Shown one piece after another: positions 1 to 29,216 of a stretch of 36,238 nucleotides of DNA. Position 1 is the first letter of the stretch; every line of letters starts with the position of its first letter. The stretch comes from Candidatus Hydrothermarchaeota archaeon (lineage in GTDB: Archaea; Hydrothermarchaeota; Hydrothermarchaeia; Hydrothermarchaeales; CAZSVW01). The notes under the pieces are model-generated. The model was not told the origin of the DNA, made no database searches, and saw nothing but the letters and a program-made list of their open reading frames with translations. Position numbers and translations under genes: made by a program. The DNA is taken from contig CAZSVW010000001.1 of NCBI GenBank assembly GCA_964610485.1, forward strand, positions 1-36,238, written 5' to 3'.

Positions 1-207
1 GGATGTCATCCGGGAGACTGTCACTACATCTCCGGAAATAATTACATGGCTAAGAGGGAGAAGAAAATAAGAAAGATGCTGGAAAAGAAAGGAATAGAAC
101 AAGAGAGGTTTAGGCTGGATTGGATATCTGCAGCTGAAGGAGCAAGATTTCAGAAGATAGTCAAAGAATTGACGGAGACCCTTAAAAGATTGAACTCCAA
201 AAAATGA
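1..207 (+). CDS. mvhD: MvhD-type iron-sulfur subunit (Mvh hydrogenase / Hdr-associated delta subunit); C-terminal fragment cut by the window edge
   Basis: Frame 1 reads GCHPGDCHYISGNNYMAKRE...RFRLDWISAAEGARFQKIV...NSKK*. The GCHxGDCHY..GN and W(I/V)SAAEG blocks are the conserved C-terminus of MvhD/FlpD-like proteins. Stop TGA 205-207 overlaps the next ATG (ATGA). Confidence 0.6.
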   Translation, partial: GCHPGDCHYISGNNYMAKREKKIRKMLEKKGIEQERFRLDWISAAEGARFQKIVKELTETLKRLNSKK

Positions 208-1232
208 GATATGACGTTGCCATAGTAGGTGCAGGTCCTAGTGGAGCATCCACGGCAAAACACTGTGCAGAGAAAGGGTTAAAAGTCATAATAATTGAAA
301 AAAAAGTTCAACTGGGATATCCATCCCACTGTGCTGGATACATACCAAAACTTGTTTCGAGGTATTTTAGGATACCAAGAGCATGTGTTCAGCAAAAAAT
401 AAAGAGGATGGCAACTTTTTTTCCGAGTGGAAAAATAAAATTTACCTCTATGCATGGTTTTATTGTAGATAGGAGTCTTTTTGATAAGTTTTTATGTCTT
501 CAAGCACTAGATGCAGGCGCAGAGATAGTTGTCGGGGGATCTGTAATCGCATTGAAAGAAAAGACGCTCAAAGTGATGGTTAAAAATAAAAAAATAGACA
601 TAAAGGCAGATTTTATAGTAGGAGCTGATGGAGCATTATCCAAGGTAGCTCGGTGGATGGGATTTAACAGGCCTAATTTGATTAAATGCGCCCAATATGA
701 GGTTCATAATATAACGGGTATAGAAGAAGAAACAGCAGAAACATATTTTGACCTAAATTTGACTAAGGCATATGCATGGATATACCCCTGTGGCAATTCC
801 TCAGCAAAAGTGGGAATCGGAACCATAAATGAAAATCCAGAAAAAAAATTGAATCTATTCATGAAGATTGTTCCTAAATTAAGAAATACAAATGTTTATT
901 CTATCTATTCTGGATTTATCCCAATAAGAAAATCTTTAGCTCTGGGTAAAAAGCATGTTCTCCTCGTTGGAGATGCCGCTGGAGTTACGGATGCCATTTC
1001 CGGGGCGGGAATTCTTTCGGGAATAATAAGTGGAAAGGCTGCAAGCAAAGCCATAGCTATGAATGATATTGAAGTCTACCATAAATCTATCAAAAAGATA
1101 CTAGGTAAAAGATTAAAAAGAGCATTATTAAAGAGGGAAAAATTAAATCGCCTTAAAAGCAATAGTGAACTAGAAAAAGAACTCCCAAAACTTTGGATTG
1201 CCTTTAAAGATTATTGGAGGAATGAAAAATGA
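204..1232 (+). CDS. Geranylgeranyl-reductase-family FAD-dependent oxidoreductase (LipT-like by context)
   Basis: N-terminal Rossmann motif DVAIVGAGPSGAS..EKGLKVIIIEKK, then GADGALS and LVGDAAG motifs typical of GGR/FixC-type flavoproteins. ATGA-coupled to both neighbours. Confidence 0.75.
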   Translation: MRYDVAIVGAGPSGASTAKHCAEKGLKVIIIEKKVQLGYPSHCAGYIPKLVSRYFRIPRACVQQKIKRMATFFPSGKIKFTSMHGFIVDRSLFDKFLCLQALDAGAEIVVGGSVIALKEKTLKVMVKNKKIDIKADFIVGADGALSKVARWMGFNRPNLIKCAQYEVHNITGIEEETAETYFDLNLTKAYAWIYPCGNSSAKVGIGTINENPEKKLNLFMKIVPKLRNTNVYSIYSGFIPIRKSLALGKKHVLLVGDAAGVTDAISGAGILSGIISGKAASKAIAMNDIEVYHKSIKKILGKRLKRALLKREKLNRLKSNSELEKELPKLWIAFKDYWRNEK

Positions 1233-1975
1233 GGAGGATGAGATTCATAGACCTTGGATACGTAAGTCTACCTATGCTTCACGCCATAGAGGAAGCTATA
1301 GCAATGAAGGGTGTACCCACATTTATGCTATGGATAGCTTCTCCTCCTACGGTGAGTCTTGGATATTTCCAGAGCGTGGAGGAGGAAGTAGATGTAGAAA
1401 TGTGTAAAGAGCTTGGGATAGAGATAAGTAGGAGGCCTTCTGGAGGAGGGGCAGCTTATTTTGATGAGAGAGAGCTCTACTACTCTATTGTAGCAAAGCA
1501 TGAGAGTGGGATTTTGCCAAAAGAACCAATTGCATGTTTTAGAAAAGCGGGAGAGGGGCTTATAAATGCCTTGAAGTTTTTTGAACTAGAAGGAACTTTG
1601 ACTGGAGTAAATGATATTCAAGTCCTCGGAAAAAAAATATCCGGAAACGCACAAACCACGATGCACGATGCTAAAATTCAGCATGGCACTTTTTTAGTAG
1701 ACTTTGACATGGAAACAATGCTAAAAGTTTTAAAAATACCCAAAGAAAAAATATCAGATAAAGGTATAAAATTTGTTGAAGAGAGGATTATAACTCTAAA
1801 AAAAGCTCTAAAAAGGGAGGTAAGTATAGAAGAAGCAAAAAAAGCTTTGATCATGGGCTTTAAAGAAGCATTAAATGTTAAATTTTATAACTCAGAGTTA
1901 AGCACGGACGAAAGAAAAATTGCCAATGAGATTGTAAAAAAATACATGAGTAAAGAATGGATATTCAAAAGATAA
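1229..1975 (+). CDS. lplA: Lipoate-protein ligase A, catalytic (BPL/LPL) domain only
   Basis: RRPSGGGAAYFDE (the RRxSGGGAVYHD-like motif) and GKKISGNAQ (lipoyl-AMP lysine motif). It ends ...SKEWIFKR*, where fused LplA proteins continue into the C-terminal domain. Confidence 0.85.
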   Translation: MRRMRFIDLGYVSLPMLHAIEEAIAMKGVPTFMLWIASPPTVSLGYFQSVEEEVDVEMCKELGIEISRRPSGGGAAYFDERELYYSIVAKHESGILPKEPIACFRKAGEGLINALKFFELEGTLTGVNDIQVLGKKISGNAQTTMHDAKIQHGTFLVDFDMETMLKVLKIPKEKISDKGIKFVEERIITLKKALKREVSIEEAKKALIMGFKEALNVKFYNSELSTDERKIANEIVKKYMSKEWIFKR

Positions 1976-2241
1976 TGAAAAAGTCTATCTATAAAGCCAA
2001 GGGAGGGCTGATAAGGATAAAGATCAAGGGAGAAGATAAAATAGAAAAGATAGTAATTACTGGAGATTTCTTCTTTTATCCAGAAAATGAACTAGAAAAC
2101 TTAGAAAAATATCTTATTGGGACTAAAATTTCAGAGGAAGAGGTATATAAATCAATAAAAAAATTTTATAAAGAAAAAAATATAGAATCTCCAGGATTAA
2201 ATCCAGAAGACCTAACAAAAGCCATAATACTAACAAAATGA
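1957..2241 (+). CDS. lplB: Lipoate-protein ligase accessory (C-terminal) domain protein, LplB-type
   Basis: KAKGGLIRIKIKGEDKIEKIVITGDFFFYPE matches the LplA C-terminal domain signature (G.i.v.l....I....i.GDFF). The more likely start is ATG 1975, which overlaps the lplA stop as TAATG. Confidence 0.75.
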   Translation: MDIQKIMKKSIYKAKGGLIRIKIKGEDKIEKIVITGDFFFYPENELENLEKYLIGTKISEEEVYKSIKKFYKEKNIESPGLNPEDLTKAIILTK

Positions 2242-3092
2242 GAGAAATTATATTTTATTTTACAGGAAAAAATTTTCCTCCAATCTCCATAACTGGAAAA
2301 AAATGTGCACTAAATTGTAAACACTGTGGTCGTAGAATGCTTGAAAATCTATATTACGCCACTACCAACGAGGAGTTGGTTAATTTAGCATTGAAATTTG
2401 AAAAGAAAAAGGCAAAAGGTATATTATTAACCGGAGGATGCAACTCATCGGGGAAGGTTCCTATTACAAAATTTGCAAAAGCTATAGAAAAGATAAAAAA
2501 AGAAACAAACCTAATTTTACTTGCACATACGGGTATAATAAACTTTGAAGAAGCCAAAATATTGAAAGAAGCTGGATTAGATGGTGTATCTCTGGATATA
2601 GTAGCAGATGAGAATGTAACCCAAAAGATATATGGCATTAGGATCCCGAAAGAAGAATATAAGAACTCTCTAATTTCTCTAAAAAAAGCAAAAATCGATA
2701 TAATATCGCCTCATATATGCGTTGGTCTCAATTTTGGAAATTTAAGCCATGAATTTGACTCATTAAAGCTTGTCTCTACTATTAAACCAAAAAATCTAAT
2801 AATAATTGCATTAATGCCGCTAAAGGGTACAGAAATGGAGAACGTAAATGTCAACCCAAGAGATGTTGCTATGGTATTCAAAGAGGCAAAAAAACTCTTA
2901 CCGAGGACTAAGATAGTATTGGGATGTGCCCATTCAACTGGGGAAAATAGAGCTAAAATTGAAGAACTTGTCCTTCCCATAGTAGATGGGATAGCTCTCC
3001 CCACCCCAAGAATTAAAAAAATTGCTCAGAAATCCAAAATGAGTATTATTGAGCAAAAAACGTGCTGCGCTATTCCGAGGTTGGAAAGATGA
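2238..3092 (+). CDS. Radical SAM protein, LipS1/LipS2-type lipoyl synthase component candidate (family A, copy 1)
   Basis: CX3CX2C motif in ISITGKKCALNCKHC. Further conserved Cys in GGC, LGC and a C-terminal CC (KTCCAIP). Paralog of 4042-4962. ATGA overlap with lplB. Confidence 0.65.
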   Translation: MREIIFYFTGKNFPPISITGKKCALNCKHCGRRMLENLYYATTNEELVNLALKFEKKKAKGILLTGGCNSSGKVPITKFAKAIEKIKKETNLILLAHTGIINFEEAKILKEAGLDGVSLDIVADENVTQKIYGIRIPKEEYKNSLISLKKAKIDIISPHICVGLNFGNLSHEFDSLKLVSTIKPKNLIIIALMPLKGTEMENVNVNPRDVAMVFKEAKKLLPRTKIVLGCAHSTGENRAKIEELVLPIVDGIALPTPRIKKIAQKSKMSIIEQKTCCAIPRLER

Positions 3093-4045
3093 AGTGGATT
3101 AGGGCATCTATAGGAACTGCAAATATGTTGGGATTAGAGAGAATCAAAATGGATGTTGAAATGAAGACCGCATATCTCCTTACATATCACAAAGGAAGAT
3201 GCAAAGCAGACTGCAAGTTCTGTGCACAAGCCAGAAACAGCAAAGCTAATATTGGTTTTATAGCCCGTGGACTATATAAGCCATATCCTTTTGGGAAAGT
3301 AGTAAATTCCCTAGTAAACTCCATCAAAGAAGGGAAAATAAAGAGGGTATGCCTCCAGACAATTAATTATGACTCACTCCATATGGACACGTTGGAGATA
3401 TGCGATACCATCCTTTCCAAAGTTGAAGTCCCCATTTCTGTGTCCAGACATCCTCTTTCTACTTCAGAGTTAAACGAACTTAAGGACATTGGTGTAGACC
3501 GTATAGTTATACCCCTAGATGCTGTAACCGAGGAGATTTTTAATAACATAAAACCTACCTACCGCTGGGAAGAACACTGGAATGGTCTTAAGAGAGCCCT
3601 AAAAATTTTTGGGCCGTGGCACGTAGGAACCCATCTGATATTGGGACTTGGAGAAACGGAAAAGGAAGCCATTGAAACGCTTCTAAAACTCCATGAACTA
3701 AAAATAAATACTGCTCTATTTGCTTTTGTGCCTATAAAGGGAACTGGATTAGAAAATCTAAAAAGACCAAAAATCTCAAGTTACAGGAGAATACAGCTGT
3801 CGTACTATCTAATAAAAATGGGAATAAACAAATTCTACTTCAAAGATGAAAAGATAATATTTGACCACGATGAAATACTGGATAAAATAATAGAAAGTGG
3901 AGAGCCGTTTCTAGCTACCGGTTGCCCAGACTGCAATAGACCCTACTCCACAGAGAGACCATCATCCACGCCATATAATTTCCCCACTCTCCCCTCAAAA
4001 GAAGAAATAGAGAAGATCAAAATAGAAATTGGTGACTACAGTTGA
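3062..4045 (+). CDS. Radical SAM protein, BioB-like, LipS1/LipS2-type lipoyl synthase component candidate (family B)
   Basis: CKADCKFCAQ (CX3CX2C, BioB-like) and a C-terminal TGCPDCNRPY Cys pair. The likely true start is ATG 3089 (MKWIRAS...), overlapping the upstream stop as ATGA. Confidence 0.65.
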   Translation: MLRYSEVGKMKWIRASIGTANMLGLERIKMDVEMKTAYLLTYHKGRCKADCKFCAQARNSKANIGFIARGLYKPYPFGKVVNSLVNSIKEGKIKRVCLQTINYDSLHMDTLEICDTILSKVEVPISVSRHPLSTSELNELKDIGVDRIVIPLDAVTEEIFNNIKPTYRWEEHWNGLKRALKIFGPWHVGTHLILGLGETEKEAIETLLKLHELKINTALFAFVPIKGTGLENLKRPKISSYRRIQLSYYLIKMGINKFYFKDEKIIFDHDEILDKIIESGEPFLATGCPDCNRPYSTERPSSTPYNFPTLPSKEEIEKIKIEIGDYS

Positions 4046-17687: not shown

Positions 17688-19577
17688 ATGAAAGTAGGGG
17701 TTTTTCTCTGTACATGTAATGATACTTGCAACATGGATTTCAAAAAAATTAAGAAAGCTATAGAGAGAGAAGTCGAATTTGTTGAAATTCACCGTCAATT
17801 TTGCCAAAAGGATGGATTGGCATACCTGATAGATGGGATAAGGAGAAAGAAACTCGACACCTTGGTTATAACTTGCGATTTAAAACAGGATTTCTTTGAG
17901 GATTTAAACCTAGGGGAGGTAATTACGCTTAACATTAGAGAGCTATGTGGATGGGTTCACAGCAAAAAAGATGCTACCGAAAAGGCTATTTCAATGATAA
18001 AAGAGCGATTATTTATGATAAATGTAGAGAAACCAAAGAGAATAATAAAAGAAACAGGAAACAGGGTACTAATAATAGGAAACTCAAAAAAATCATTTGA
18101 AATAGCAGATGGACTTAAAAATTTTGCAGAAGTAACGTTATTTGTAGATAAAACGCCAGAAATTGAAATCCCCAATGTTAAAACAATTTTTGGAAGTATA
18201 ACCCAAATCAACAGGAGGAGCATAAGATATAGGCCAAACCCTATAGATGAGAAAATTTGCATATTATGCGGTGAATGCAATAAAATTTGTGAAGAGAAAG
18301 CAATAGAATTCAATAAGAGATACTTTATAACTGAAAAATGCACAAAATGTGGAAAATGCATTCAAATATGCCCAACAAATGCTATAAAGTTTGAAAGAAA
18401 CGAAAAAGAACTTAAAACAGATCACATATTAGTAGAAGATGAAATTTCTTCTCCAAAACTTTTTGATTTACTCGCCAAAATCGGAGAGGCTGAGGTCTTT
18501 AAATATATAGACGCTAACTTGGAAAATTGCCCAAGCTTCAAAAGTATGTTGGAAGGGTGCAGCCTCTGCATAGAAGCTTGCCCCAATGATGTAATATATA
18601 GGGATAAAGAAGGAATAAAGTTCGATGACCTCTATTGTACTGGATGTGGCGTTTGCTCTTCTATCTGTCCTCTCTCTCTACTGGAACTAGTGGGAGATCC
18701 CGTCATGGAAAGGTTAAAGATATTACTTGATAACAAACTAGATAAGAAGATCCTCCTTATCTCATGCGATGAAAAAAGGAAAGAACTATATAAAATTGGA
18801 AGAGAAAAAACTAGATATCCCGCATATCTTCCTCTCTTTACAAATTTAGGGAGAATATCTGAGGTAGACTTGCTAGAAGCCTTGCTTTATGGTGCAGACG
18901 GGATAATAATATGGGGTTGCGAAAAATGTTTAGAGGAACTCGACAGAACAAAAAGCTTTGAAATAGCCAATGCGATTCTCCAAAATTTCGGTTTGGAAAG
19001 CAGAATAAGAGTAGTAAAAGATTTCAAAGAAATTAAAGACATAGAATTTACCAAAATTAAACATAAAAAAATTGATCTATCAAATAAGAATAAAAGAGAA
19101 AGGCTCATCATAATAGTAAAAGAATTAATGGATCTATTTAAGAGTAAAAAATTAAAATTTACAGGTGAATATCCATTTGGGGAAGTTAAAATAGGAGAAG
19201 AGTGTACTTTCTGCGATGCTTGCATAAGCATGTGCGCAACGGATGCATTAAAGAAAGAGGGGGATAAGCTAACGTTCTCCTATCCCAAATGCATAGCATG
19301 CACGCTGTGCGAGAAGGCATGTCCAGAAAATGCAATAAAGATAGAAAAGGTCTTAGATGTAGAAAAATTGAGTAATGAGAACTACCTACCGATCTATGAG
19401 GCAGAACTAATAAAATGCAAAAAATGTGGTAAACCATTCACGAGTAAAAAAATATTGGACAAAATACTTGCATTAAAAATAGACATGGACAGAGAATTGC
19501 TCTATTACTGTGAAGATTGTAGGGCTGAGATGGCCGTTAGGAAAATGATAGAAGAAAATGCTCAGCGCAAAATATAA
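17688..19577 (+). CDS. Polyferredoxin-like Fe-S protein with MvhD/FlpD-like modules
   Basis: Five canonical CX2CX2CX3C(P) motifs (CILCGECNKIC, CTKCGKCIQICP, CTGCGVCSSICP, CTFCDACISMC, CIACTLCEKACP) plus one variant (CSLCIEACP). The MvhD-like block is ILLISCDE...LGRISEVDLLEALLYGADGIIIWGCEKC. The C-terminus has CKKCG...YYCEDC. Confidence 0.75.
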   Translation: MKVGVFLCTCNDTCNMDFKKIKKAIEREVEFVEIHRQFCQKDGLAYLIDGIRRKKLDTLVITCDLKQDFFEDLNLGEVITLNIRELCGWVHSKKDATEKAISMIKERLFMINVEKPKRIIKETGNRVLIIGNSKKSFEIADGLKNFAEVTLFVDKTPEIEIPNVKTIFGSITQINRRSIRYRPNPIDEKICILCGECNKICEEKAIEFNKRYFITEKCTKCGKCIQICPTNAIKFERNEKELKTDHILVEDEISSPKLFDLLAKIGEAEVFKYIDANLENCPSFKSMLEGCSLCIEACPNDVIYRDKEGIKFDDLYCTGCGVCSSICPLSLLELVGDPVMERLKILLDNKLDKKILLISCDEKRKELYKIGREKTRYPAYLPLFTNLGRISEVDLLEALLYGADGIIIWGCEKCLEELDRTKSFEIANAILQNFGLESRIRVVKDFKEIKDIEFTKIKHKKIDLSNKNKRERLIIIVKELMDLFKSKKLKFTGEYPFGEVKIGEECTFCDACISMCATDALKKEGDKLTFSYPKCIACTLCEKACPENAIKIEKVLDVEKLSNENYLPIYEAELIKCKKCGKPFTSKKILDKILALKIDMDRELLYYCEDCRAEMAVRKMIEENAQRKI

Positions 19578-20127
19578 AAAGCATTTTCAAAAATTTTTTG
19601 AACCTATTGCTAGGGTATTTATAAAAGTAAATCCAAACGCCATTACATTAATTGGTCTTTTGTGGAGTTTTTTCACCGTTTTAGCTTTTTATATAGAAAA
19701 TTTACGATTAGCTCTTCTTTTTCTACTATTAACTTCTTTTTGCGATGCTTTGGATGGAATGGTAGCTAGGCTCTCTGACAGGGTTACAAAATTTGGGGGA
19801 TATTTGGACTCGGTGCTAGATAGATACTCCGATGGTATGATATTTCTTGGAATAATGGTATACCTCAGAGAAAAATACTTGTTAATATTCCTTGCAATGA
19901 TGGGGAGTTTCATGGTGAGCTATACAAGGGCAAAAGCAGAAACTTGGATCGATAAGTGCGATGTAGGAGTTGCGGAAAGAGGCGAGAGATTGCTCATTTT
20001 AATAATCGCTACCATCTTAGCAAATTTTGGAATTAACATATTTATAGAGGCAATTGCCCTAATAGTGATACTCACCCATATAACTTTCATTCAGCGTATG
20101 CTCTACACGAGAAGATTCATTAAATGA
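19558..20127 (+). CDS. CDP-alcohol phosphatidyltransferase family protein (possibly archaetidylinositol-phosphate synthase type)
   Basis: DALDGMVARLSDRVTKFGGYLDSVLDRYSD fits D-G-x2-A-R-x8-G-x3-D-x3-D. The protein has multiple transmembrane helices and is about 190 aa. Confidence 0.85.
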   Translation: MLSAKYKKHFQKFFEPIARVFIKVNPNAITLIGLLWSFFTVLAFYIENLRLALLFLLLTSFCDALDGMVARLSDRVTKFGGYLDSVLDRYSDGMIFLGIMVYLREKYLLIFLAMMGSFMVSYTRAKAETWIDKCDVGVAERGERLLILIIATILANFGINIFIEAIALIVILTHITFIQRMLYTRRFIK

Positions 20128-20953
20128 GAGTTACAGAATAATGCTTTCCGAAAGGTCTTGAGGAAAAGGGTATTACCTTCGTAAATTCTTTACTCCATAT
20201 AAGCTCTTCTGGAGTATTAAAAAGTTCACAAAATCTATTAATTATAGATTTGAGTATCTCCCTGTCCTCTTTCGTCACCTTGTCTTTCACCGCATATACT
20301 CCGAGCAAATGATTCGGCACTTCCCCTCTTATATAAATTCTTCCACCATGTATTCCCGCAGCCAAATCGCTCTGAACTATGGGGTCTGGCTTGTTCTTTA
20401 TCTTTTTTGGGTCTATATTATCCTTATCTATAGGTTTGCTTTTGTCTATTATGGCATCCTTAAAATCCAGGCCAAGAACAACTATTATCCCCCCTGCCAT
20501 GTATTCACCACAATACTGTTTTACACTACCACCATAGACTATTATTGGTCTTCTATCCTTGTATTCCTTCATATGTATCCCCACTCTGCTCCCTCCGTCC
20601 CCCATCACATATATTGCTCCCCCCCTAGCTCCCATTCCGGTGATATCCCAAGAATCCCCATAAACTATGAGTTCCCCTCCGTTGAGCGTGTTTCCTAAGA
20701 GATACTCCGAGGAACCGTGCACAATTATTCTTTCACCCTCAAAGAAAACTCCTAGGTCAAGACCCGCATCTCCAAATACCTCTATCGTTACTTTATCTTT
20801 TATCCCAGCGCCTATAAATCTCTGACCAGATACATTCTTAAGCACTATCCAATCATACCCTTTCCTTATTGCTTCTCTAATTTTCTTATTTAATTCTCGA
20901 TGATAGAGCTTTACTCCTCTAGGGCATGCATCAATAACTATTTTTTTGACCAT
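20120..20953 (-). CDS. Glutamate synthase GXGXG-domain subunit (archaeal split GOGAT, alpha-subunit C-terminal domain)
   Basis: GQRFIGAG....I.V.GDAG...G.....G.I.V.G repeats are typical of the GltB C-terminal beta-helix. The start overlaps the upstream stop as TAATG. Confidence 0.85.
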   Translation of the reverse strand: MVKKIVIDACPRGVKLYHRELNKKIREAIRKGYDWIVLKNVSGQRFIGAGIKDKVTIEVFGDAGLDLGVFFEGERIIVHGSSEYLLGNTLNGGELIVYGDSWDITGMGARGGAIYVMGDGGSRVGIHMKEYKDRRPIIVYGGSVKQYCGEYMAGGIIVVLGLDFKDAIIDKSKPIDKDNIDPKKIKNKPDPIVQSDLAAGIHGGRIYIRGEVPNHLLGVYAVKDKVTKEDREILKSIINRFCELFNTPEELIWSKEFTKVIPFSSRPFGKHYSVTLI

Positions 20954-22485
20954 TAATGACCACCCAGTCTAATTCTTTCACCTGCATGCTTAACTCCAAG
21001 AATTTGAGCTTCATGAGGATTTGGACCTATATACCTGAGCCTATCCCTGTTTCCGACAAAACTTTCGACAGCATCTATCCCCATGGTCCCAAGAACCTCT
21101 TCTAGATCATGCGTCCATGCCCTGAGCAAATTTGCTACTCTCTGTGCTGCCCAATTTACATCCAACCTTTGAGATAATACGGGGTCTGTTGTAGCTATAC
21201 CCCATGCACATTTTCCAGTTGGACATTGCTGACATACTCTACAACCCATTGCAATTAAGGCCGCAGTACCTATCATGCCCACGTCTGCACCTAGAGCTAT
21301 TATCTTTATTAAATCTGAGGAACTTCTCAAAGTTCCACCAGCTACTATGGTTATCTTGTGTCTTATCCCCTCCTCAGTGAGATGCTGGTCAACTGAAGCA
21401 ACTGCATGCTCTATCGGTATTCCTGCATTGTCCCTTATCACCCTTGGAGCCGCCCCTGTCCCCCCTCGAAAACCGTCTATCGTAATAAAGTCGGCTCCCG
21501 CTCTCACTATACCACTAGCAATGGGTGCAACATTATTTACAGCTGCTATTTTTACCCCAACTGGAATCCTATATTCAGTTGCCTCATGGAGGGCATCTAT
21601 CAATGTTTTGAGGTCTTCTATCGAGTATATGTCGTGCTGAGGATTTGGAGAGAGTGCATCGGTGCCTATCGGTATCCCTCTGGTTTCTGAAATTAGCTTA
21701 TTCACCTTCTCCCCAGGTAATTGTCCCCCATGTCCTGGTTTAGCTCCCTGTCCTATTTTTATTTCTATAGCGGCCACGTTTAGGTAATCTGGTGAAACTC
21801 CGAACCTTCCACTTGCCACTTCTGCTATTATGTTTTTCTTAAATTTATAATGGTTGGGATGTAATCCTCCTTCTCCGGTACCCATTAATGTTCCCACTTC
21901 TGTAACAGCCATCAACATTGCAGTTATCGCATTATAACTCAATGCACCGAGAGACATGTGTTCAATCAATAATGGCGTAGAAAGCATCACACCCGGAGGA
22001 AGGTCCTCTATATCATAACATCCCTCAGCGATTTCTTTAATTTTGATTGTTCTTTTTTTTCTCCCTAAGAACGTTCGCGTCTCTACAGGCTCTCTCAGAG
22101 CATCTATTGCTGGATTCGTTACCTGACATGCATCCCATACCAAATAATCGAACACGCAAGGATACGGCCTATCACATCCAGTTCCGGCGAGCAATACCCT
22201 ACCCGTCCTTGCTTGTTCATCTATTGCTCTAATATGGTAAGGCGTCCATGTCCCATGAGCAGGATAAACTACGGGATAAGGAGTAATAGAAATAGCCCCT
22301 ACCGGGCAGAAAGTAACACATCTTTGACAAGCCACACAATTAGAGGTATCCTTTACAATGGGCTTATTTTGTTCTCTATCATATACTATTGCTCCAAAAG
22401 TACAATTTGTAGCGCATCTACCACACTTAATACACTTATCATAGTCTATTTCTACCTTATATTTAGGGAGTTTCCTATCCATCAT
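20953..22485 (-). CDS. Glutamate synthase FMN/synthase-domain subunit with N-terminal 2x[4Fe-4S] ferredoxin domain
   Basis: N-terminal CIKCGRCATNC and CVACQRCVTFCP. Then GQGAKPGHGGQLPG, DIYSIEDL, ITIDG..GGTGA and GADVGMIGTAAL..GC..C..C..G.C.WGI, the GltB FMN domain with its 3Fe-4S region. Confidence 0.88.
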   Translation of the reverse strand: MMDRKLPKYKVEIDYDKCIKCGRCATNCTFGAIVYDREQNKPIVKDTSNCVACQRCVTFCPVGAISITPYPVVYPAHGTWTPYHIRAIDEQARTGRVLLAGTGCDRPYPCVFDYLVWDACQVTNPAIDALREPVETRTFLGRKKRTIKIKEIAEGCYDIEDLPPGVMLSTPLLIEHMSLGALSYNAITAMLMAVTEVGTLMGTGEGGLHPNHYKFKKNIIAEVASGRFGVSPDYLNVAAIEIKIGQGAKPGHGGQLPGEKVNKLISETRGIPIGTDALSPNPQHDIYSIEDLKTLIDALHEATEYRIPVGVKIAAVNNVAPIASGIVRAGADFITIDGFRGGTGAAPRVIRDNAGIPIEHAVASVDQHLTEEGIRHKITIVAGGTLRSSSDLIKIIALGADVGMIGTAALIAMGCRVCQQCPTGKCAWGIATTDPVLSQRLDVNWAAQRVANLLRAWTHDLEEVLGTMGIDAVESFVGNRDRLRYIGPNPHEAQILGVKHAGERIRLGGH

Positions 22486-23645
22486 TTCAATAACCTCTCA
22501 AGCTCTTCAAGGTCCCTAGATTGTCCATACTTAACAATTCCTTCCTCCGTTGCAATCACTGCACTACCTGGATCTGGCTGCCAGTAGTTCATCGTATCAT
22601 CTACCTCATGAATTGCATTAAGCTCGCTTGCTAAATAGAAAGTAGAACCACTTTCCGAAATTGCGGCTATGAGAGGGCGAAGTTTCTTTCTGTCTGAATG
22701 CCCAATCATTGCAAGTTTGGGATAATCCGTAGTTATAATTATACTAAAAGGCCCATTCGCCATGCCCCTTCTGTGGGTTATTCTAATTGCTGTGAACCAC
22801 TTCCTAAGCTTAGGAGACATCCTATCTATATCTCTCCAGTATGGGGGAGACAAAGCCACACAGGCTATCTGTTGTGAGATGTTTTTTGGATACCCACTTT
22901 TTCTAACAAAAAAATCAAAGAGATATGCTAAAACCTCGGTATCTGTATATAAATCACAAGTATACCCTAATTCCTTGAGATACTCAACATTTGTTCCATA
23001 AGAGGTTATTTCTCCATTATGTACAATTGCGTGTCCTAAAATAGAAAATGGATGGGCACCTCCCCACCATCCGGGAGTATTCGTTGGGAATCTGGAGTGA
23101 GCACTCCACATATAACCTTTAATCTCTTCGATTCTATAGAACTTCGCAATTTCGTAACTCCATCCACTCCCCTTAAATACGGCCATATTTTTACCAGAAC
23201 TTAAACAGAATGCACCATCTATTTTTCTATTAATCTTAAGCACCACATCTTTAATAACATCATCGGGATCTACTTTGTCATCTTTAGGATATACAAAGAA
23301 TCTCCAAACATTCGGATATTCCCTAAAAACATTCTTATTTACTTTAACTTTCTCCTCTTTGAATATCTCAACATGATTTTTAAGAAATTCTTCGACTCTC
23401 TCTTTCGTTGGAGGTAACCCTTCTATTTCCTCCATTATAAGTTGAATGCAATAATAATCTCCAAACTTTGGAAAAAGCCCATATACTGCAAATCCTGCTC
23501 CAAGACCGTTCTCCCTCTCTCGCATCGTACATATCATCTTAACTATCTTCTTTCCACTGACTATTTTCTTATCCAAATTAAAAAACCCAGCTATTCCACA
23601 TGCGCTATTATCTACTTTCCAGAGAGGTTTAGTAAATGAATCCAC
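22482..23645 (-). CDS. Glutamate synthase class-II glutamine amidotransferase-domain subunit
   Basis: The CGIAGF Ntn nucleophile follows a 15-aa leader. Also HSRFPTNT..W..AHPF and VHNGEI. GTG start with GGAGGT 6 nt upstream; ATGA overlap with the FMN subunit gene. Confidence 0.85.
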   Translation of the reverse strand: MDSFTKPLWKVDNSACGIAGFFNLDKKIVSGKKIVKMICTMRERENGLGAGFAVYGLFPKFGDYYCIQLIMEEIEGLPPTKERVEEFLKNHVEIFKEEKVKVNKNVFREYPNVWRFFVYPKDDKVDPDDVIKDVVLKINRKIDGAFCLSSGKNMAVFKGSGWSYEIAKFYRIEEIKGYMWSAHSRFPTNTPGWWGGAHPFSILGHAIVHNGEITSYGTNVEYLKELGYTCDLYTDTEVLAYLFDFFVRKSGYPKNISQQIACVALSPPYWRDIDRMSPKLRKWFTAIRITHRRGMANGPFSIIITTDYPKLAMIGHSDRKKLRPLIAAISESGSTFYLASELNAIHEVDDTMNYWQPDPGSAVIATEEGIVKYGQSRDLEELERLLK

Positions 23646-23649
23646 TCAA

Positions 23650-24957
23650 TTACCTCCGTGTTTTCTCGATTATCTCTCTTATTTCTTCAACTTCTATTTT
23701 CTCAGGCATTGGTAGACCCATTTTCTTTCTAACGCTTATTCTCGTGGGCATCGCATATCCGCTTCTCTCGAAGAGCTTTACCTTATCTCCAACAATCCTA
23801 GGAACTTTTCCTTTTTCGATGGCAAGTTCTCTCAACTTTTTAAACATATCTTTAAGTCCTATGTTACTTGGACAATTAACTTCACATTTGCCGCACTGTA
23901 AGCATCTCCATATATCTTTACTCTCCAAAACTTCGCTCAATTTTCCTTCTAGAAGTTTATTAACAGTTATCAATGGATCAAATGGTTCTTCATCGTTTTT
24001 AGTAACTATAGAGAGAGTACATTCATTACTGCAGGCGCCGCAATGTGCATTCAGCAAACCCAAATCAAAGTATTTTTTCACGATCTCCAACTCATTTTCT
24101 TTTACTTCACTTATACGCTCTAAAATTTTATCTGTACTCGTCATATGCAAATTGAGGTGGAGTTTTTCGGGGGGATATCCAAAAGAAAGGAGCAACAACT
24201 CTGAAAGATGAAGAACAGGGATCTTATATTCTTCTAACTTTGGATTTGGCATATCAAAGCGTAGAAAGCAACCTGGACATGTAGTAACTATACAGTCGGC
24301 TTTTCCTTTTATCTCCCTCAATTTTCTCAGTAGAAGTTCATCTGCACGTCTTGGATCATAAGCTAGGATAGGGACACCGCAACATGTAAATTTTTCTTCA
24401 TAGTCGATGCTCTCTGCTCCGGTGGCTTCTACAAGCTCGTCTAGGCTTCTTGGCTCTTTTCTGTCAACTTCGAGAACGGGTGGAAACACCGCGTGACAAC
24501 CATAATGAACTGCAACTCTCAAACCAGATAAACTTCTTTTTACTCTACTTTTAATTTCTTTGAGATTAGAATGGAGTTCTCCTAACACATGATTTATCTC
24601 CAACTTACCGGTGTATTTTTTTCTCAATAGAGAATTTATTTTTTCACGGATATTGGGTTCTGCTAATTTATCATTAGCCGACTTAAGAGTTACATAACAT
24701 CCATTACAGATCACAAGAAGTTCATTTGCAAGCTCTTCCGCTAATGCGAGATTTCTTGCAGATATACCCAGCGAGGTTTCTTCTCCATATGCGGCCAAAT
24801 AAGTTGGATCTGGACAGCAAGAGGCATTTTTTATCTCAACTAAATTTATATTTAAATTTCTAAACACCTCTCTGGTATCTTCCATCAAATAAGGCAAACT
24901 CTGAATTAAGGTGCATCCCCAGAACACTGGAAGATTTTTCTCTATGTACCTTACCAA
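23650..24957 (-). CDS. HdrB-HdrC-like fusion: two CCG domains followed by a 2x[4Fe-4S] ferredoxin domain
   Basis: CCG domain 1 is WGC-X31-CC-X35-CNGC. CCG domain 2 is YGC...FTCCGVP...CPGC. The C-terminal part has CGACSNEC and CLQCGKCEVNCP. The gene ends 4 nt before the GOGAT amidotransferase gene. Confidence 0.8.
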   Translation of the reverse strand: MVRYIEKNLPVFWGCTLIQSLPYLMEDTREVFRNLNINLVEIKNASCCPDPTYLAAYGEETSLGISARNLALAEELANELLVICNGCYVTLKSANDKLAEPNIREKINSLLRKKYTGKLEINHVLGELHSNLKEIKSRVKRSLSGLRVAVHYGCHAVFPPVLEVDRKEPRSLDELVEATGAESIDYEEKFTCCGVPILAYDPRRADELLLRKLREIKGKADCIVTTCPGCFLRFDMPNPKLEEYKIPVLHLSELLLLSFGYPPEKLHLNLHMTSTDKILERISEVKENELEIVKKYFDLGLLNAHCGACSNECTLSIVTKNDEEPFDPLITVNKLLEGKLSEVLESKDIWRCLQCGKCEVNCPSNIGLKDMFKKLRELAIEKGKVPRIVGDKVKLFERSGYAMPTRISVRKKMGLPMPEKIEVEEIREIIEKTRR

Positions 24958-25038
24958 TTTTTATCCTCTCCAATGCTCTGTTTCAAAAAGATACTTTAAT
25001 ATCTTATACATAAATTTTTTGAATGTTTTCAGAAAGGA

Positions 25039-26133
25039 TTATCTTCTACTTTGGAGTACTTTTGTAAGGGCTAATACAAATTTATCATTCTCGCTCTTTT
25101 TCCCTATACTCACTCGTATATATTCCCCATCTAAACCTAACAACCCTGTAACGTTCCTTACAAGTATTCCTCTCTTGCATAACTCCTCCACTAACTCGGA
25201 GGCATGGATTTTCAAGAGCTTAATTAAAATGAAATTCGCCTCTGAAGGAAAAGGTCTGACTCCATTTATATTTTTAAGGATATTCATTAAACGTTCCCTT
25301 TCACTTATGATGCGGTTTTTAAGTTTATTAAAATATTCAATCTCCTCCAGTGCTTTAGCTGCTGCTATCTCAGCAATCCTAGAAATTGAAAAGGGTTGTC
25401 TTACCTTTTCTATTAAACTGGCCAAAGTTGGATTTGTAATTGCATATCCTACCCTTAATCCTGCCAAACCAAAAAATTTTGAAAAAGAACGGACTACTAT
25501 CAGATTATCATACTTTTTGACTTTAGAAACAATGCTTCTTCCATAAAACTCTGAATAGGCCTCATCTACAATAACTGGGGTGTCTATGCTCTCTATTATA
25601 TTACATAATTCTTTTTCCTCAATTACCGAACCTGTAGGGTTATTTGGAGAACACAAAAAAAGAAGCTTTGCACCCTTGCAACTGTCGGTTATCTCCTCAC
25701 TTTTAGGAATAAAATTTTCTTCCTCTTTCATTTTAATAGTTTCTATACTTGCATCCCTAAGCATGGAATAAAAAAAATACAAAGTATAGGTGGGTACCGG
25801 GATTACAACCTTATCAAACGGCTCTAAAAAAATATTAGAGATGCTCTGAATAATTTCTGTTGCTCCATTTCCTACTGCAATATGATCTGGGGGGAGTTTT
25901 ACGTATTCTGAAATCTTTTCTTTAAGGAGAGTATAGTTGGGGTCTGGATATCTTGGTATACTATCTAGCGCATGCACGACCGACTCGATTAAACTTTCAG
26001 GCGGGGGGAATGGATTTTCATTGGACTTTAGATTAACTATAGCACTCAAAGGTATACCGTATTTTTTTGAAATTTCGATAGGATCTATTCCATAATCATA
26101 TTTTCCAATGAATTCTACTGTTTTCCTTACCAT
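25039..26133 (-). CDS. hisC: Class-II PLP-dependent aminotransferase, histidinol-phosphate aminotransferase family
   Basis: LKSNENPFPPP, GNGATE, CSPNNPTG, VDEAYSEF and the RSFSKFFGLAGLRVGY PLP-lysine motif. A CobD-type alternative cannot be excluded. Confidence 0.72.
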   Translation of the reverse strand: MVRKTVEFIGKYDYGIDPIEISKKYGIPLSAIVNLKSNENPFPPPESLIESVVHALDSIPRYPDPNYTLLKEKISEYVKLPPDHIAVGNGATEIIQSISNIFLEPFDKVVIPVPTYTLYFFYSMLRDASIETIKMKEEENFIPKSEEITDSCKGAKLLFLCSPNNPTGSVIEEKELCNIIESIDTPVIVDEAYSEFYGRSIVSKVKKYDNLIVVRSFSKFFGLAGLRVGYAITNPTLASLIEKVRQPFSISRIAEIAAAKALEEIEYFNKLKNRIISERERLMNILKNINGVRPFPSEANFILIKLLKIHASELVEELCKRGILVRNVTGLLGLDGEYIRVSIGKKSENDKFVLALTKVLQSRR

Positions 26134-26448
26134 TTAACCTTCTATAGCCTCTTTAAGGTTGTCTATCTCTTTCTTTAGGTCTTCAAGTGGGAGGACTCCT
26201 GTTTCTTTCTCTTCTGCCCCTGCAAGCGCCCAGAATAATCGTGCTACTACTACCATCAATTTCCCCGCATATCCAGGGGAGTAGGGTAATAGTTCCGCGG
26301 CAACATCTCCACACTTCTCTAGCACTCCCTTATCCAACTTTTTAGCTTTTTCGGCTGCAGCCCCTAAAACAGAGATTCCTTTCCCTAGCACTTGTTCCCT
26401 TGCCGCATACGCTTTAGCGGCTTCGCTAGTGACCCTATGCACTCCCAT
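26134..26448 (-). CDS. Hypothetical Ala/Gly-rich 104-aa protein
   Basis: Strong SD (GGAGGTGAT, plus-strand 26455-26463) 6 nt before the ATG. Its stop TAA is directly followed by the aminotransferase ATG. No motif I recognise. Confidence 0.6.
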   Translation of the reverse strand: MGVHRVTSEAAKAYAAREQVLGKGISVLGAAAEKAKKLDKGVLEKCGDVAAELLPYSPGYAGKLMVVVARLFWALAGAEEKETGVLPLEDLKKEIDNLKEAIEG

Positions 26449-26465
26449 TTCTATATCACCTCCTC

Positions 26466-27929
26466 CTAATAGTCAAGATATTTCATTATTTCCCACGGAG
26501 TTACATATAAGCAATATTGATTCCACTCGTCTATCTTTAAACTGATAAATGCTTCATATATGTGGTCTCCAAGCGTCTCTTGAAGGACTTCATCTGTAGT
26601 CAAGTGATCGATAGCATCTCTCAATGTGGTTGGAAGTTCACCTACTCCATATTTTTTCTTTTCTTCTGGGGTAAGCTCGTACATATCTTCTCTTAATGGG
26701 TCTCCCGGTTCAATCTTTTTCTTTATCCCATCAAGTCCGGCTGATAGCAAACACGAAAACGCTAGATAAGGATTGCAGCTTGGATCAACTGCCCTATATT
26801 CGCATCTTATAGTTTTTGGGCTTTTGAAGTAAATTGGAACTCTGATAAGAGCGCTTCTGTTCCTTGGACTCCAACTGATATTAATTGGTGCCTCAAATCC
26901 TGGTACTAAGCGTTTATAGCTATTCACCGTGGGGCAGCACACCGCAGTCAGGGCCTTAGAATGCTCTATCAATCCTCCTATGAAATATCTAGCTGTTTGG
27001 CTCAGTCCATATTCATCGTCTTTATCGAAGAATACATTTTCTCCTTTGAAAGGTTCTCCTTTCCAGAGGCTTATATGCGTATGCATTCCACTGGCATTAT
27101 CCAAGTACAGCGGCTTCGGCATAAATGTTGCAATCCATCCGTATTTCTTTGCAATGTTCCTAGCAACAAATTTATAAATATAGAATGCATCTCCGCATTC
27201 AACCACTTCTTTGGGACTAAAGTCCAGCTCTATCTGTCCTGCCGTAGCTACCTCGTGATGGTGGTATTCAACTTTCACTCCCATTTGAGTTAGATAGTAT
27301 GCTACTTCATTTCTATAATCGTTGGTTGTATCCTCTGGAGGAGCTCTGAAGTATGCTTCTTTTGGTCTGAGTATAATTCCGCCAGGAGTTATTTCTGGTG
27401 AACGAGGTACCACCCTCGGAGGACCCCAAGAGTCTCCTTTGCCTCCGTTTGGGGATACCCATAAATCATACTCTAGTTTTGTGGGATCAATGCTTTCAAA
27501 TACGAAATACTCTATCTCTGGACCAAATATTGCCCTATATCCCATTTTCTCTGCTTTTTTCATAGCTCTTCTAGCAACATATCCCCTTGGATCTACTTCG
27601 GAAACTACTCCGCCCCCTTTTTCTCCAAATGCTTCATATATGTCTCCGAAAATTATTGCAGACTTCTGTATTGGGTCATCTATCCAAGGAATGACTCTAG
27701 TAGTAGCTGCATCAGGCACCCAAACCATATCGCTCATTTCGATTGTTTTAAATCCTCTAATAGAAGACCCATCAAACCCTATTCCCGTTTCGAAAGCATC
27801 CCCCTCTATAAATCCATCCGCTGGAATTGTAAAGCTCTGTAATATCCCTCTGACATCGCTAAAGAAGCAGAGTACATTTTTTACCTTTGCTTCTTTCAAT
27901 TTTCTTATAGCTTCCTCACGCCCGGACAT
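26466..27929 (-). CDS. glnA: Glutamine synthetase type I
   Basis: FDGSSI.GF, GPE.EYF.F, HHEVA.AGQ.E, KP....NGSGMH-like (DNASGMHTHISLW), NSYKRLVPG.EAP and SPRNRSALIRVP. Confidence 0.95.
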   Translation of the reverse strand: MSGREEAIRKLKEAKVKNVLCFFSDVRGILQSFTIPADGFIEGDAFETGIGFDGSSIRGFKTIEMSDMVWVPDAATTRVIPWIDDPIQKSAIIFGDIYEAFGEKGGGVVSEVDPRGYVARRAMKKAEKMGYRAIFGPEIEYFVFESIDPTKLEYDLWVSPNGGKGDSWGPPRVVPRSPEITPGGIILRPKEAYFRAPPEDTTNDYRNEVAYYLTQMGVKVEYHHHEVATAGQIELDFSPKEVVECGDAFYIYKFVARNIAKKYGWIATFMPKPLYLDNASGMHTHISLWKGEPFKGENVFFDKDDEYGLSQTARYFIGGLIEHSKALTAVCCPTVNSYKRLVPGFEAPINISWSPRNRSALIRVPIYFKSPKTIRCEYRAVDPSCNPYLAFSCLLSAGLDGIKKKIEPGDPLREDMYELTPEEKKKYGVGELPTTLRDAIDHLTTDEVLQETLGDHIYEAFISLKIDEWNQYCLYVTPWEIMKYLDY

Positions 27930-28271: not shown

Positions 28272-29216
28272 TCACGCCCAATAAGGTTTCTTTACATATT
28301 TGTATGCATTTAATGCAGCTACCACCGCATCTCCACAAGCCGTAGCAAGCTGTCTCGCTCTATTAACAATATCCCCCGCTGCAAATACACCTTTTATATT
28401 TGTTTCTTGCTTAATATTCACTTCTATAAAATTTTTATTAGTTTTAAGTCCTGCTTTTTTTAAAAATTCAACGGAAGACGATATACCAATGCTTATTATT
28501 ATTTCATCTACACTTATTTTTTTACTTTTTCCCGTTTTGACATTATATACTTCTACTTCTTCAACATGCTCTTTTCCCATTATTCTTTTTATCTCCGTAT
28601 CCCACATTATCTTAACTCCACACGAGAGCAACTTTTCCCTGTAGGTTTCCTCCGCCCTAAGCTCTCCTCTTCTATGTACGAGGGTTATCTCCCTAGCAAT
28701 GCCAGATAATATGAGTGCATTTTCAACCGCCGCATTCCCTCCCCCAACTATTAGTACCTTCCTATTCTTGTATTTCTCGATGGTATCTATTTTATACTCC
28801 ACGCCTCTTCTAAAAAACTTCTCTTCTCCTTCTACATTAAGTTTTCTTGGCTCCCCCCCCGCCAGACCCAAGCACACTATTACGCTCCTACCCATATATT
28901 CCCCTTTCTCTGTTTTCACTATCTTATCCTCTCCACTCAAATTGAGAGAAACAACTTTTTCATCGAATCTTATCTCTGCACCAGAAAGCTCTGCATGATT
29001 TTGGAGTTTTTCTGCTAGTTCCTCTCCAGTAATACCTTTTGGAAATCCTGGAAAATTGTAAATGAGCTTTTTTGGATAGAACTTAATTAATTGTCCTCCT
29101 CCTCTACTTTCAGCTTCTAAAATTAAAGTTTTCATTCCCCTTCTTGCAGCATACATCCCCGCAGTCAATCCTGCAGCTCCGGCTCCCAACACTATTACAT
29201 CGTACTTTTGCACCAT
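28272..29216 (-). CDS. Thioredoxin-reductase-like ferredoxin-NADP+ oxidoreductase (YumC-type FNR); lacks the redox CxxC
   Basis: GAGAAG FAD motif. GGGQLIKFYPKKLIYNFPGFP matches the TrxR-like FNR block (GGQL..LYPEK.IYDV.GFP). GVEYKIDTIEKYKNRKVLIVGGGNAAVENA stands where TrxR has CATCDG. Also HRR..LRA and GVFAAGDI. Confidence 0.75.
   Translation of the reverse strand: MVQKYDVIVLGAGAAGLTAGMYAARRGMKTLILEAESRGGGQLIKFYPKKLIYNFPGFPKGITGEELAEKLQNHAELSGAEIRFDEKVVSLNLSGEDKIVKTEKGEYMGRSVIVCLGLAGGEPRKLNVEGEEKFFRRGVEYKIDTIEKYKNRKVLIVGGGNAAVENALILSGIAREITLVHRRGELRAEETYREKLLSCGVKIMWDTEIKRIMGKEHVEEVEVYNVKTGKSKKISVDEIIISIGISSSVEFLKKAGLKTNKNFIEVNIKQETNIKGVFAAGDIVNRARQLATACGDAVVAALNAYKYVKKPYWA

Follow-up and report, generated by a model that had tools for sequence, protein, structure and literature searches.

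A fused HdrB-HdrC-like protein as a likely, optional electron-handling partner of a split glutamate synthase

The DNA analysed here, referred to below as the window, is a stretch of 36,238 nucleotides from Candidatus Hydrothermarchaeota archaeon (GenBank assembly GCA_964610485.1, contig CAZSVW010000001.1). Its minus strand carries a gene, hdrBC, whose product joins an HdrB-like half and an HdrC-like half in one polypeptide, and directly downstream lie the three genes of a split glutamate synthase (GOGAT), encoding the glutamine amidotransferase (GATase), flavin mononucleotide (FMN) and GXGXG subunits. Our conclusion is that the fused Hdr-like protein most probably serves the split GOGAT as an optional partner for handling electrons, in a role so far undescribed. 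The TTG start of hdrBC is preceded by GGAGAGG, as read from the DNA, and its TAA stop (23652-23650) is followed by a 4-nt gap (ttga) and then by the GTG start of the GATase gene at 23645. The GATase and FMN genes overlap by ATGA at 22485-22482, and the FMN and GXGXG genes overlap by TAATG around 20953. These junctions, together with a GGAGGT ribosome binding site inside the Hdr-like coding end, had been described in the original prediction and were all confirmed in the DNA. In the closest relative (68% identity) the hdrBC-GATase junction is an 8-nt overlap. From the 4-nt spacing alone, hdrBC would be co-transcribed with the GOGAT genes.

Two CCG stretches (E 4e-27) followed by a Fer4_8/Fer4_17 dicluster at residues 305-366 were identified in the fusion protein by Pfam, and the NCBIfam HdrB and HdrC models match residues 11-282 and 305-430, respectively. 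The first CCG motif reads C15-x31-C47C48-x35-C84xxC87 and the second HYGC154...C192C193G...C227PGC230, while the HdrC-like half contains C306xxC309xxxC313 and then C352xxC355xxC358xxxC362P; the cysteine spacings reported previously proved exact in the translation. Each of the ten CCG cysteines is shared by 27-29 of the 29 aligned homologues. The second HdrC-like motif (CxxCxxCxxxCP) is complete, and the first lacks its first cysteine, with H305 in its place. Position 305 is His in the window's clade and Cys in a sister clade (P0047, P0050 and P0052), and a distant clade has the full motif. The substitution suggests that the first HdrC-like cluster in the window's clade is either His-ligated or a three-Cys cluster. 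Histidine ligands of this sort are found on surface-exposed entry clusters.

The fold is that of HdrB and HdrC. An AlphaFold2 (AF2) model of the fusion, built from 29 homologues, has a pLDDT of 89.6, and a Foldseek search with this model returned HdrB chains (5odc_B, 8rwn_B and 7bkb_B) at TM 0.86-0.89 with a root-mean-square deviation (rmsd) of 1.9-2.3 Å, HdrC chains at TM of about 0.6, and also the CCG proteins LutA and EtfD. A family profile searched against the PDB gave E-values of 1e-85 to 1e-99 for the HdrB chains in five solved Hdr complexes and of about 1e-20 for HdrC. The protein passes no NCBIfam model, scoring 209.7 bits for HdrB (TIGR03288, cut-off 345.15) and 52.5 bits for HdrC (TIGR03290, cut-off 160). 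Weaker NCBIfam matches were to SdhE, LdhH and GlcF, with quinone-linked CCG proteins at most 130 bits and the GlcF and GlpC matches confined to the Fer4 part of the fusion. Ordinary 287-aa HdrB paralogues are encoded elsewhere in the window genome.

Judged by its domain content, the three-gene block is a split archaeal-type GOGAT, with catalysis predicted from context. In the GATase subunit Cys16 follows a short propeptide. The FMN subunit begins with a 2x[4Fe-4S] domain of eight cysteines (Pfam Fer4_21/Fer4_7), in agreement with the ferredoxin domain originally noted there, and further contains the four-Cys cluster motif C415xxC418xxC421PxxxC426. That the block lacks a GltD-type gene was borne out by both Pfam and NCBIfam, neither of which detected an FrhB domain in the block either. 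Moreover, no credible Fer4_20/GltD match was found in the 85%-complete window genome, where the sole Fer4_20 match, inside an HdrC-like open reading frame (ORF), reaches 19 bits and falls under the cut-off.

The association of the fusion with GOGAT genes extends well beyond the window. A homology search recovered about 85 full-length proteins with the B-then-C order, 430-455 aa in length, from archaea and bacteria. On genome contigs (one genome per species), 36 of 39 fused loci have the GATase, FMN and GXGXG genes directly downstream, and in the other three no more than 546 nt of sequence follows the fused gene. On metagenome contigs the GOGAT genes directly follow the fused gene at 44 of 48 loci, the other four being cut within 303 nt. 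The same order was seen at eight further loci, in three genomes of the window's phylum (G015, G017 and G018), a Helarchaeote, an Odinarchaeote, a Jordarchaeote, Methanoperedens and the closest relative. Loci were not deduplicated between these collections, and the carriers are nearly all metagenome-assembled genomes (MAGs), although Slackia heliotrinireducens is an example of one in culture. Among loci with enough downstream sequence, no fused gene was found away from GOGAT in the genome or metagenome scans, and the ordinary HdrB loci (about 290 aa) from the same scans have no GOGAT nearby. The original prediction had staked itself on linkage in other genomes, and the linkage holds there, at 36 genome, 44 metagenome and 8 other loci.

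Carriers span at least six phyla of Archaea and Bacteria. The archaeal carriers comprise Altiarchaeota, MAGs assigned to 'Methanobacteriota/Euryarchaeota', many Asgard lineages, and ANME-2/Methanosarcinales including Methanoperedens; the bacterial carriers comprise Coriobacteriia, Thermoleophilia, other Actinomycetota, and MAGs that bear the labels Eubacteriales, Deltaproteobacteria and Armatimonadota. The labels on homologues at 50% identity are Hydrothermarchaeota, Altiarchaeota or 'Euryarchaeota'. Two apparent variants were discarded. A second B-then-C class of ~675 aa in Asgard archaea arose from ORF extension across stops and is really an ordinary HdrB followed by another gene, and an 846-aa HdrBC-GATase fusion (locus L036) is an open overlapping frame in a high-GC genome.

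The genes also share their history. On a maximum-likelihood tree of the FMN subunit, HdrBC linkage requires 5 changes, compared with a mean of 17 for shuffled labels, and none of 500 shufflings gave a count as low as 5. In the HdrB-domain tree, one clade takes in 43 of the 45 sequences linked to GOGAT, and the other two are long branches. The linked HdrB domains are thus nearly monophyletic, a pattern compatible with a single origin. Pairwise distances are strongly correlated between HdrBC and the FMN subunit (r = 0.93), between HdrBC and the GATase subunit (r = 0.93) and between the FMN and GATase subunits (r = 0.95). Together with the clustering on the trees, these correlations lead to the conclusion that the four genes travel as one cassette. 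Complete linkage, near-monophyly and co-variation therefore support the earlier proposal of a functional partnership between the fusion and the split GOGAT, for electron input or redox regulation, with the qualification, developed below, that the partner is optional. The proposal had also held that no such role was described, and full-text literature searches agree: they returned no paper connecting Hdr-like proteins with glutamate synthase. What is new is the kind of accessory redox module that accompanies this split GOGAT, one that is absent from the literature found.

Features of the hdrBC-GOGAT locus and of the genes upstream of it (window coordinates)
Feature	Position	Strand	Remarks
hdrBC-like fusion gene	23650..24957	-	435 aa, TTG start, TAA stop; ORF, Pfam and NCBIfam
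HdrB-like half, residues 1-285	24103..24957	-	two CCG domains, ten Cys of two non-cubane [4Fe-4S] sites
HdrC-like half, residues 300-435	23653..24060	-	dicluster domain and conserved C-terminal tail; alignment columns
GOGAT GATase subunit	22482..23645	-	387 aa, class II; Pfam GATase_2/6/7
GOGAT FMN subunit with N-terminal ferredoxin domain	20953..22485	-	Pfam Glu_synthase (E 3e-126) and Fer4 families
GOGAT GXGXG (C-terminal domain) subunit	20120..20953	-	Pfam GXGXG (E 9e-25)
GATase-gene ribosome binding site GGAGGT	23652..23657	-	inside hdrBC coding end; read from DNA
hisC-like/hdrBC spacer, 81 nt	24958..25038	-	read from DNA
glnA	27929..26466	-	upstream of hdrBC, co-directional; ORF and Pfam/NCBIfam
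104-aa ORF	26448..26134	-	between glnA and hisC-like gene, co-directional
hisC-like aminotransferase	26133..25039	-	ends 81 nt before hdrBC; ORF and Pfam/NCBIfam

Upstream of hdrBC, the order glnA, 104-aa ORF and hisC-like gene is also present in the closest relative, where the hisC/hdrBC spacer is 25 nt as against 81 nt in the window. Within the 81-nt spacer, the A/T-rich TTTATGTATAAGAT was picked out by eye as a possible internal promoter. The 104-aa ORF is Ala/Gly-rich, is without a Pfam or NCBIfam match, occurs in the closest relative (L235) and is 71% identical in G025 (L102), a genome with an HdrBC-less GOGAT; it goes with glnA and hisC, not with HdrBC.

All ORFs of 93 related loci were clustered in order to survey the neighbouring genes. 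Apart from the core four, the genes that recur are glnA (26 of 93 loci), an ANTAR response regulator (22) and its histidine kinase (18), amt and glnK in a few loci, and Lrp- or OmpR-type regulators. This is a context of nitrogen assimilation and supports a genuine GOGAT. No second redox partner recurs at the 93 loci, where HdrA, MvhD, GltD, FrhB, Lpd, a lipoyl protein, thioredoxin and thioredoxin reductase (TrxR) were all absent as recurrent neighbours.

Within the window's phylum the split GOGAT is present in 33 of 38 genomes and the fused HdrBC in four (the window genome, G015, G017 and G018), in all of which hdrBC adjoins the GATase gene. The remaining GOGATs of the phylum fall in another FMN clade, and the genes upstream of them are unrelated, among them hisC with the same small ORF, glnA, pdxT, queC, helicases and transposases. 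The small ORF of the 104-aa type, hisC and the GATase gene stand together in HdrBC-less G025 (L102). Relatives such as this, in which hisC precedes a GOGAT without HdrBC, indicate that the window cassette occupies the same hisC-GOGAT position as the three-gene version. In G014 only about 86 nt of the hdrBC 3' end is kept, and homology to its congener G015 starts at that point. The ammonium-transporter ORF of G014 (L134, G014:C89, 114-1157) ends in the HdrBC C-terminal tail peptide ...IRKKMGIEPAKEIDVTTIVEIIEKTK..., as seen by comparison with L226 (G015:C151) 2384-3676 of the congener. This tail may be a deletion remnant or possibly an assembly join. These comparisons give a history of the phylum with a gain of HdrBC in the hisC-GOGAT position and two losses. 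Since GOGATs of the same clade are kept without HdrBC, the core enzyme can evidently exist, and presumably work, alone. The HdrBC-less sister genomes serve as natural 'knock-outs' which mark the module as an add-on and thereby constrain any mechanism. A GltD gene found near the HdrBC-less glnA-GOGAT of G013 lies ~2.2 kb upstream, is divergent and is separated by two regulator genes, and was rejected as an operon partner; it belongs to an NfnAB/SudAB-like pair (L133, G013:C9, 5-2238) of a GltD-like protein of 465 aa and a PyrK-like protein of 279 aa.

The HdrB-like half aligns to residues 5-291 of 5ODC chain B, which allowed its active-site residues to be compared with those of heterodisulfide reductase (Hdr). 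In structure 5ODR, the disulfide of coenzyme M and coenzyme B (CoM-S-S-CoB) is contacted by R14, the backbone of G46 and G198, R201, F233 and R240 (PMC13261682). The corresponding positions in the window protein are S20, T52, a deletion of the GG insertion, L198, G229 and M236. Among the 45 linked sequences, whose alignment is uncertain around the GG insertion, F233 and R240 are kept in none, R14 in 38 and R201 in 32; the equivalents of R14 and R201 are kept in most Asgard and actinobacterial members and lost in the window's clade. Since the contacts to the two coenzymes are replaced, we conclude from the alignment that the substrate of the HdrB-like site is something other than CoM-S-S-CoB, which fits the presence of the fusion in bacteria. 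To our knowledge, bacteria are without CoM and CoB.

The observed four-gene linkage, fold, cluster ligands and co-inheritance with GOGAT form the basis for a model of how the protein might act. In this model the 435-aa protein would be an optional fourth redox subunit that couples the iron-sulfur (Fe-S) chain of GOGAT to a thiol/disulfide couple, a proposal for which we see the balance as about even. The HdrB-like half would hold two non-cubane [4Fe-4S] clusters, which in Hdr make and break a disulfide, and the HdrC-like half, with two further clusters, would dock on the FMN subunit at its 2x[4Fe-4S] ferredoxin domain. An Fe-S wire would thus run from the thiol/disulfide site through the HdrC-like clusters, the ferredoxin domain and the four-Cys cluster to the FMN, with a catalytic site at each end. 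More specifically, and more tentatively, the GOGAT may be dithiol-driven: the non-cubane clusters would oxidise a cellular thiol and pass the electrons to the FMN. A dithiol would be oxidised at the HdrB-like site and two electrons would reduce 2-iminoglutarate at the FMN, following the logic of TfrB; the donor, distinct from CoM and CoB, would either be bound to a protein or have a low molecular weight. As GOGAT takes up two electrons and is the one catalytic partner that HdrBC has, a dithiol feeding GOGAT is the simplest reading. Physical association of the proteins, the direction of electron flow and the identity of the thiol are what we infer here.

Energetically, such a reaction is plausible on an estimate from textbook potentials, which place the 2-oxoglutarate plus ammonium/glutamate couple at about -0.14 V, or about -0.07 V with glutamine hydrolysis included. 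Thiol couples of -0.14 to -0.27 V would be enough for such an acceptor, near -0.07 V. The lack of a detected GltD-like gene in the window genome, and hence of an alternative NAD(P)H route, also speaks for the model. So do the close packing of the hdrBC-GATase junction, the lack of any rival redox gene recurring beside the cassette in the 93 loci, and the FrhB-type precedent in Methanosarcina hadiensis described below.

Several observations weigh against this thiol-coupled model. The module is dispensable in evolution, being carried by 4 of the 33 GOGAT-bearing genomes of the phylum, and G013 (97% complete) and G014 have a GOGAT of the window-type clade (FMN subunits 75-76% identical) without HdrBC. 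All twelve Fe-S cysteines are invariant in HdrBC-linked and unlinked FMN subunits, and no insertion tells the two groups apart. With the same ligands in either case, the core GOGAT can presumably accept electrons by way of the ferredoxin domain that it already has. None of the 93 loci has a linked gene for a thiol carrier or thiol reductase, the substrate-contact residues differ between clades, with R14 and R201 mostly kept elsewhere and lost here, and GcvH-like lipoyl proteins do not co-occur with HdrBC-GOGAT in the phylum.

In a search for residues that separate linked from unlinked FMN subunits, only Q419 (21229-21231, inside C415xxC418xxC421) stands out, with Gln in 35/35 linked and Lys in 16/19 unlinked sequences; this difference is confounded by phylogeny, and the residue possibly tunes the cluster.

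The same evidence can be read in other ways. The HdrBC-like subunit might be a pure electron relay or adaptor, devoid of thiol chemistry, that extends the Fe-S chain to another donor, for instance one certain ferredoxin, a complex of the hydrogenase/Hdr type or the quinol pool of bacteria that have quinones, by analogy with GlpC, SdhE and EtfD. LutA and EtfD among the structural matches and the weaker NCBIfam matches to SdhE, LdhH and GlcF are what a relay would lead one to expect, as are the lack of any linked thiol-related gene (0 of 93 loci), the inconsistent conservation of the HdrB substrate contacts and the presence of His305 for a Cys ligand in the window's clade. However, the fusion is far nearer to true HdrB (209.7 bits; E 1e-99) than to the quinone-linked CCG proteins (at most 130 bits), archaeal and bacterial members alike retain all ten cysteines of the non-cubane sites, the FMN subunit comes with a ferredoxin-type entry domain of its own, and no conserved donor gene is adjacent. 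Furthermore, most of the archaeal hosts (Asgard, Altiarchaeota) are not known to us to use quinones. We therefore consider a relay unlikely. The flow might also be outward, with electrons of the ferredoxin domain shared between the FMN and a disulfide-reducing HdrB-like site. Such a ferredoxin:disulfide reductase could regulate glutamine synthetase (GS) and GOGAT or supply a thiol under nitrogen limitation. Reduction is the usual direction of HdrB, the contexts are nitrogen-regulated (glnA, amt/glnK, ANTAR and Lrp regulators), optional presence is expected of a regulator or accessory, and the original prediction allowed for redox regulation as well; yet no target thiol protein is linked in the surveyed loci, the strict order, tight spacing and subunit-level co-variation are more typical of a stoichiometric subunit, and diverting low-potential electrons from GOGAT offers no obvious benefit. 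An outward role of either kind thus seems to us rather improbable.

It is also conceivable that HdrBC is a co-regulated but independent thiol or sulfur enzyme, or that the trio catalyses a non-GOGAT reaction like that of MgsABC, the N-methylglutamate synthase. Association of the proteins is predicted from genes alone, same-clade GOGATs exist without HdrBC, and split GOGAT-like trios with other functions are known, MgsABC being the example. Yet 100% linkage over about 90 loci in several phyla, in a fixed order, would be hard to obtain by co-regulation alone, and HdrBC by itself has neither a flavin nor a second catalytic site with which to complete a redox reaction. As for other chemistry, the order of the GATase, FMN and GXGXG genes, the ferredoxin domain of the FMN subunit and the glnA/amt/glnK neighbours all fit a genuine GOGAT. 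We accordingly regard independence, or a different reaction, as very unlikely.

Specific donors for the thiol-coupled model were sought among lipoyl proteins and nearby genes. GcvH-like genes are present in 25 of the 38 genomes of the phylum and are absent from the HdrBC-GOGAT genomes G017 and G018 (98% complete). No GcvH, Lpd or lipoyl gene occurs in the 93 flanks, and a lipoyl-protein donor, though conceivable in other lineages, is unsupported in the phylum. The window genome does encode a GcvH-like protein (L139, G000:C38) of 145 aa with the lipoyl-lysine motif ETIKA. Its gene stands in a co-directional cluster of ThiI-like, FdhD-like, GcvH and TorD-like/molybdopterin-oxidoreductase genes (ORFs 3325..2570, 2651..1914, 1887..1450 and 1347..1), an unusual setting for the H protein of glycine cleavage. 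Several genomes of the phylum have a GcvH-like gene no more than about 1.5 kb away from an ordinary hdrB (G015:C191:8876-10567; G016:C153:295-1983; G035:C92:1178-3011; G036:C134:3662-5476; G037:C166:202-1984), and in G015 and G016 an hdrC-like gene is found between the two. The arrangement recalls the bacterial LbpA-dependent sulfur-oxidising Hdr-like systems, and a lipoyl protein may be what such HdrBC paralogues act on.

Two genes of the window were examined and rejected as partners. The TrxR-like gene at 29216..28272 (-) is without CxxC and is not linked in other HdrBC-GOGAT loci; by eye, its product reads RRGVEYKIDT where the CxxC of TrxR is expected. The missing CxxC indicates that the product is probably a TrxR-type ferredoxin/flavodoxin-NADP reductase (an FNR-like flavoprotein). 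The gene lies near glnA in both the window and the closest relative. The gene for a 629-aa polyferredoxin (17688..19577, +) is convergent with the GOGAT block and is not conserved beside HdrBC-GOGAT. In the closest relative (L235 14437-19317), the polyferredoxin has HdrA-N-terminal-like and MvhD/FlpD-like parts and adjoins the genes for a TorD-like chaperone and a Tat-signal molybdopterin oxidoreductase. The 629-aa protein probably belongs to a molybdopterin oxidoreductase system, not to GOGAT.

If the GOGAT is indeed dithiol-driven, it would form a further class of glutamate synthase, one set apart by its electron donor, and in Asgard archaea, Altiarchaeota, ANME-2/Methanoperedens, Actinomycetota and the present lineage the assimilation of ammonium would be coupled directly to the pool of redox-active thiols. 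We know of no biochemical work that has established which electron donor the split 'archaeal-type' GOGAT uses. The sole published donor proposal that we found is an FrhB-type F420 module, put forward from genomic context, and the HdrBC module would be a second, unrelated input. It would also be the first role known to us for HdrB-type non-cubane clusters in nitrogen assimilation, would widen the catalytic repertoire of Hdr-like proteins beyond methanogenesis and sulfur metabolism, and might offer anaerobes a route to glutamate without spending NADPH or low-potential ferredoxin.

Among known systems, HdrB and HdrC of the HdrABC complex (5ODC, 7BKB, 8RVU/8RWN) share with the window protein the two CCG domains and the HdrB fold, at ~34-35% identity, as well as a dicluster domain with a C-terminal tail in HdrC. 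In contrast, the window protein is one polypeptide with B before C, its HdrB and HdrC scores lie under the NCBIfam cut-offs, its equivalents of R14, the G198 loop, R201, F233 and R240 are replaced, and its first HdrC motif is one Cys short. Nor does an HdrA gene adjoin the fusion here or in the 93 related loci, where the invariant neighbour is GOGAT. The HdrD, GlpC, GlcF and DsrK fusions likewise combine a 2x[4Fe-4S] domain and two CCG domains in a single polypeptide. In these proteins, however, the ferredoxin domain is N-terminal and the partners are membrane proteins or flavoproteins, whereas the window protein has the order CCG-CCG-Fer4 and is nearer to HdrB.

The closest functional analogue is TfrB of the Methanothermobacter thiol:fumarate reductase, to which the fusion has a weak NCBIfam match (58 bits). 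In TfrAB, Fe-S clusters and two CCG domains carry the electrons of thiol oxidation to a flavin that reduces an organic acid. TfrB differs in that its ferredoxin part is N-terminal and its CCG domains are C-terminal, in its SdhB lineage, and in its partner, the fumarate reductase flavoprotein. On the GOGAT side, the window enzyme resembles NADPH-GOGAT (GltB-GltD) and ferredoxin-GOGAT in its GATase, FMN and GXGXG domains and in its role beside glnA. Unlike them, it has these domains on three polypeptides, a four-Cys motif and an N-terminal ferredoxin domain in the FMN subunit, and no GltD.

A glutamate synthase that depends on F420 (FGltS I/II), with an FrhB-like fourth subunit, has been proposed on genomic context (PMC3448663; also PMC3087415, PMC9012536). 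Like the window locus, FGltS consists of a three-gene split GOGAT core and one adjacent redox gene inferred to be the electron input. There, however, the extra gene encodes a Fer4+FrhB protein, an F420H2-oxidising flavoprotein, and lies downstream of the GXGXG gene, whereas in the window it encodes an HdrBC-like protein without a flavin domain and lies upstream of the GATase gene. In Methanosarcina hadiensis (L131) we found the same GOGAT trio followed, 6 nt after the GXGXG gene, by a Fer4+FrhB_FdhB gene. The Methanosarcina gene is a precedent for a swappable fourth GOGAT gene. Taken together, the bare, FrhB-bearing and HdrBC-bearing loci thus give three forms of the split GOGAT: the trio, the trio with an FrhB-type module, and the trio with an HdrBC-type module.

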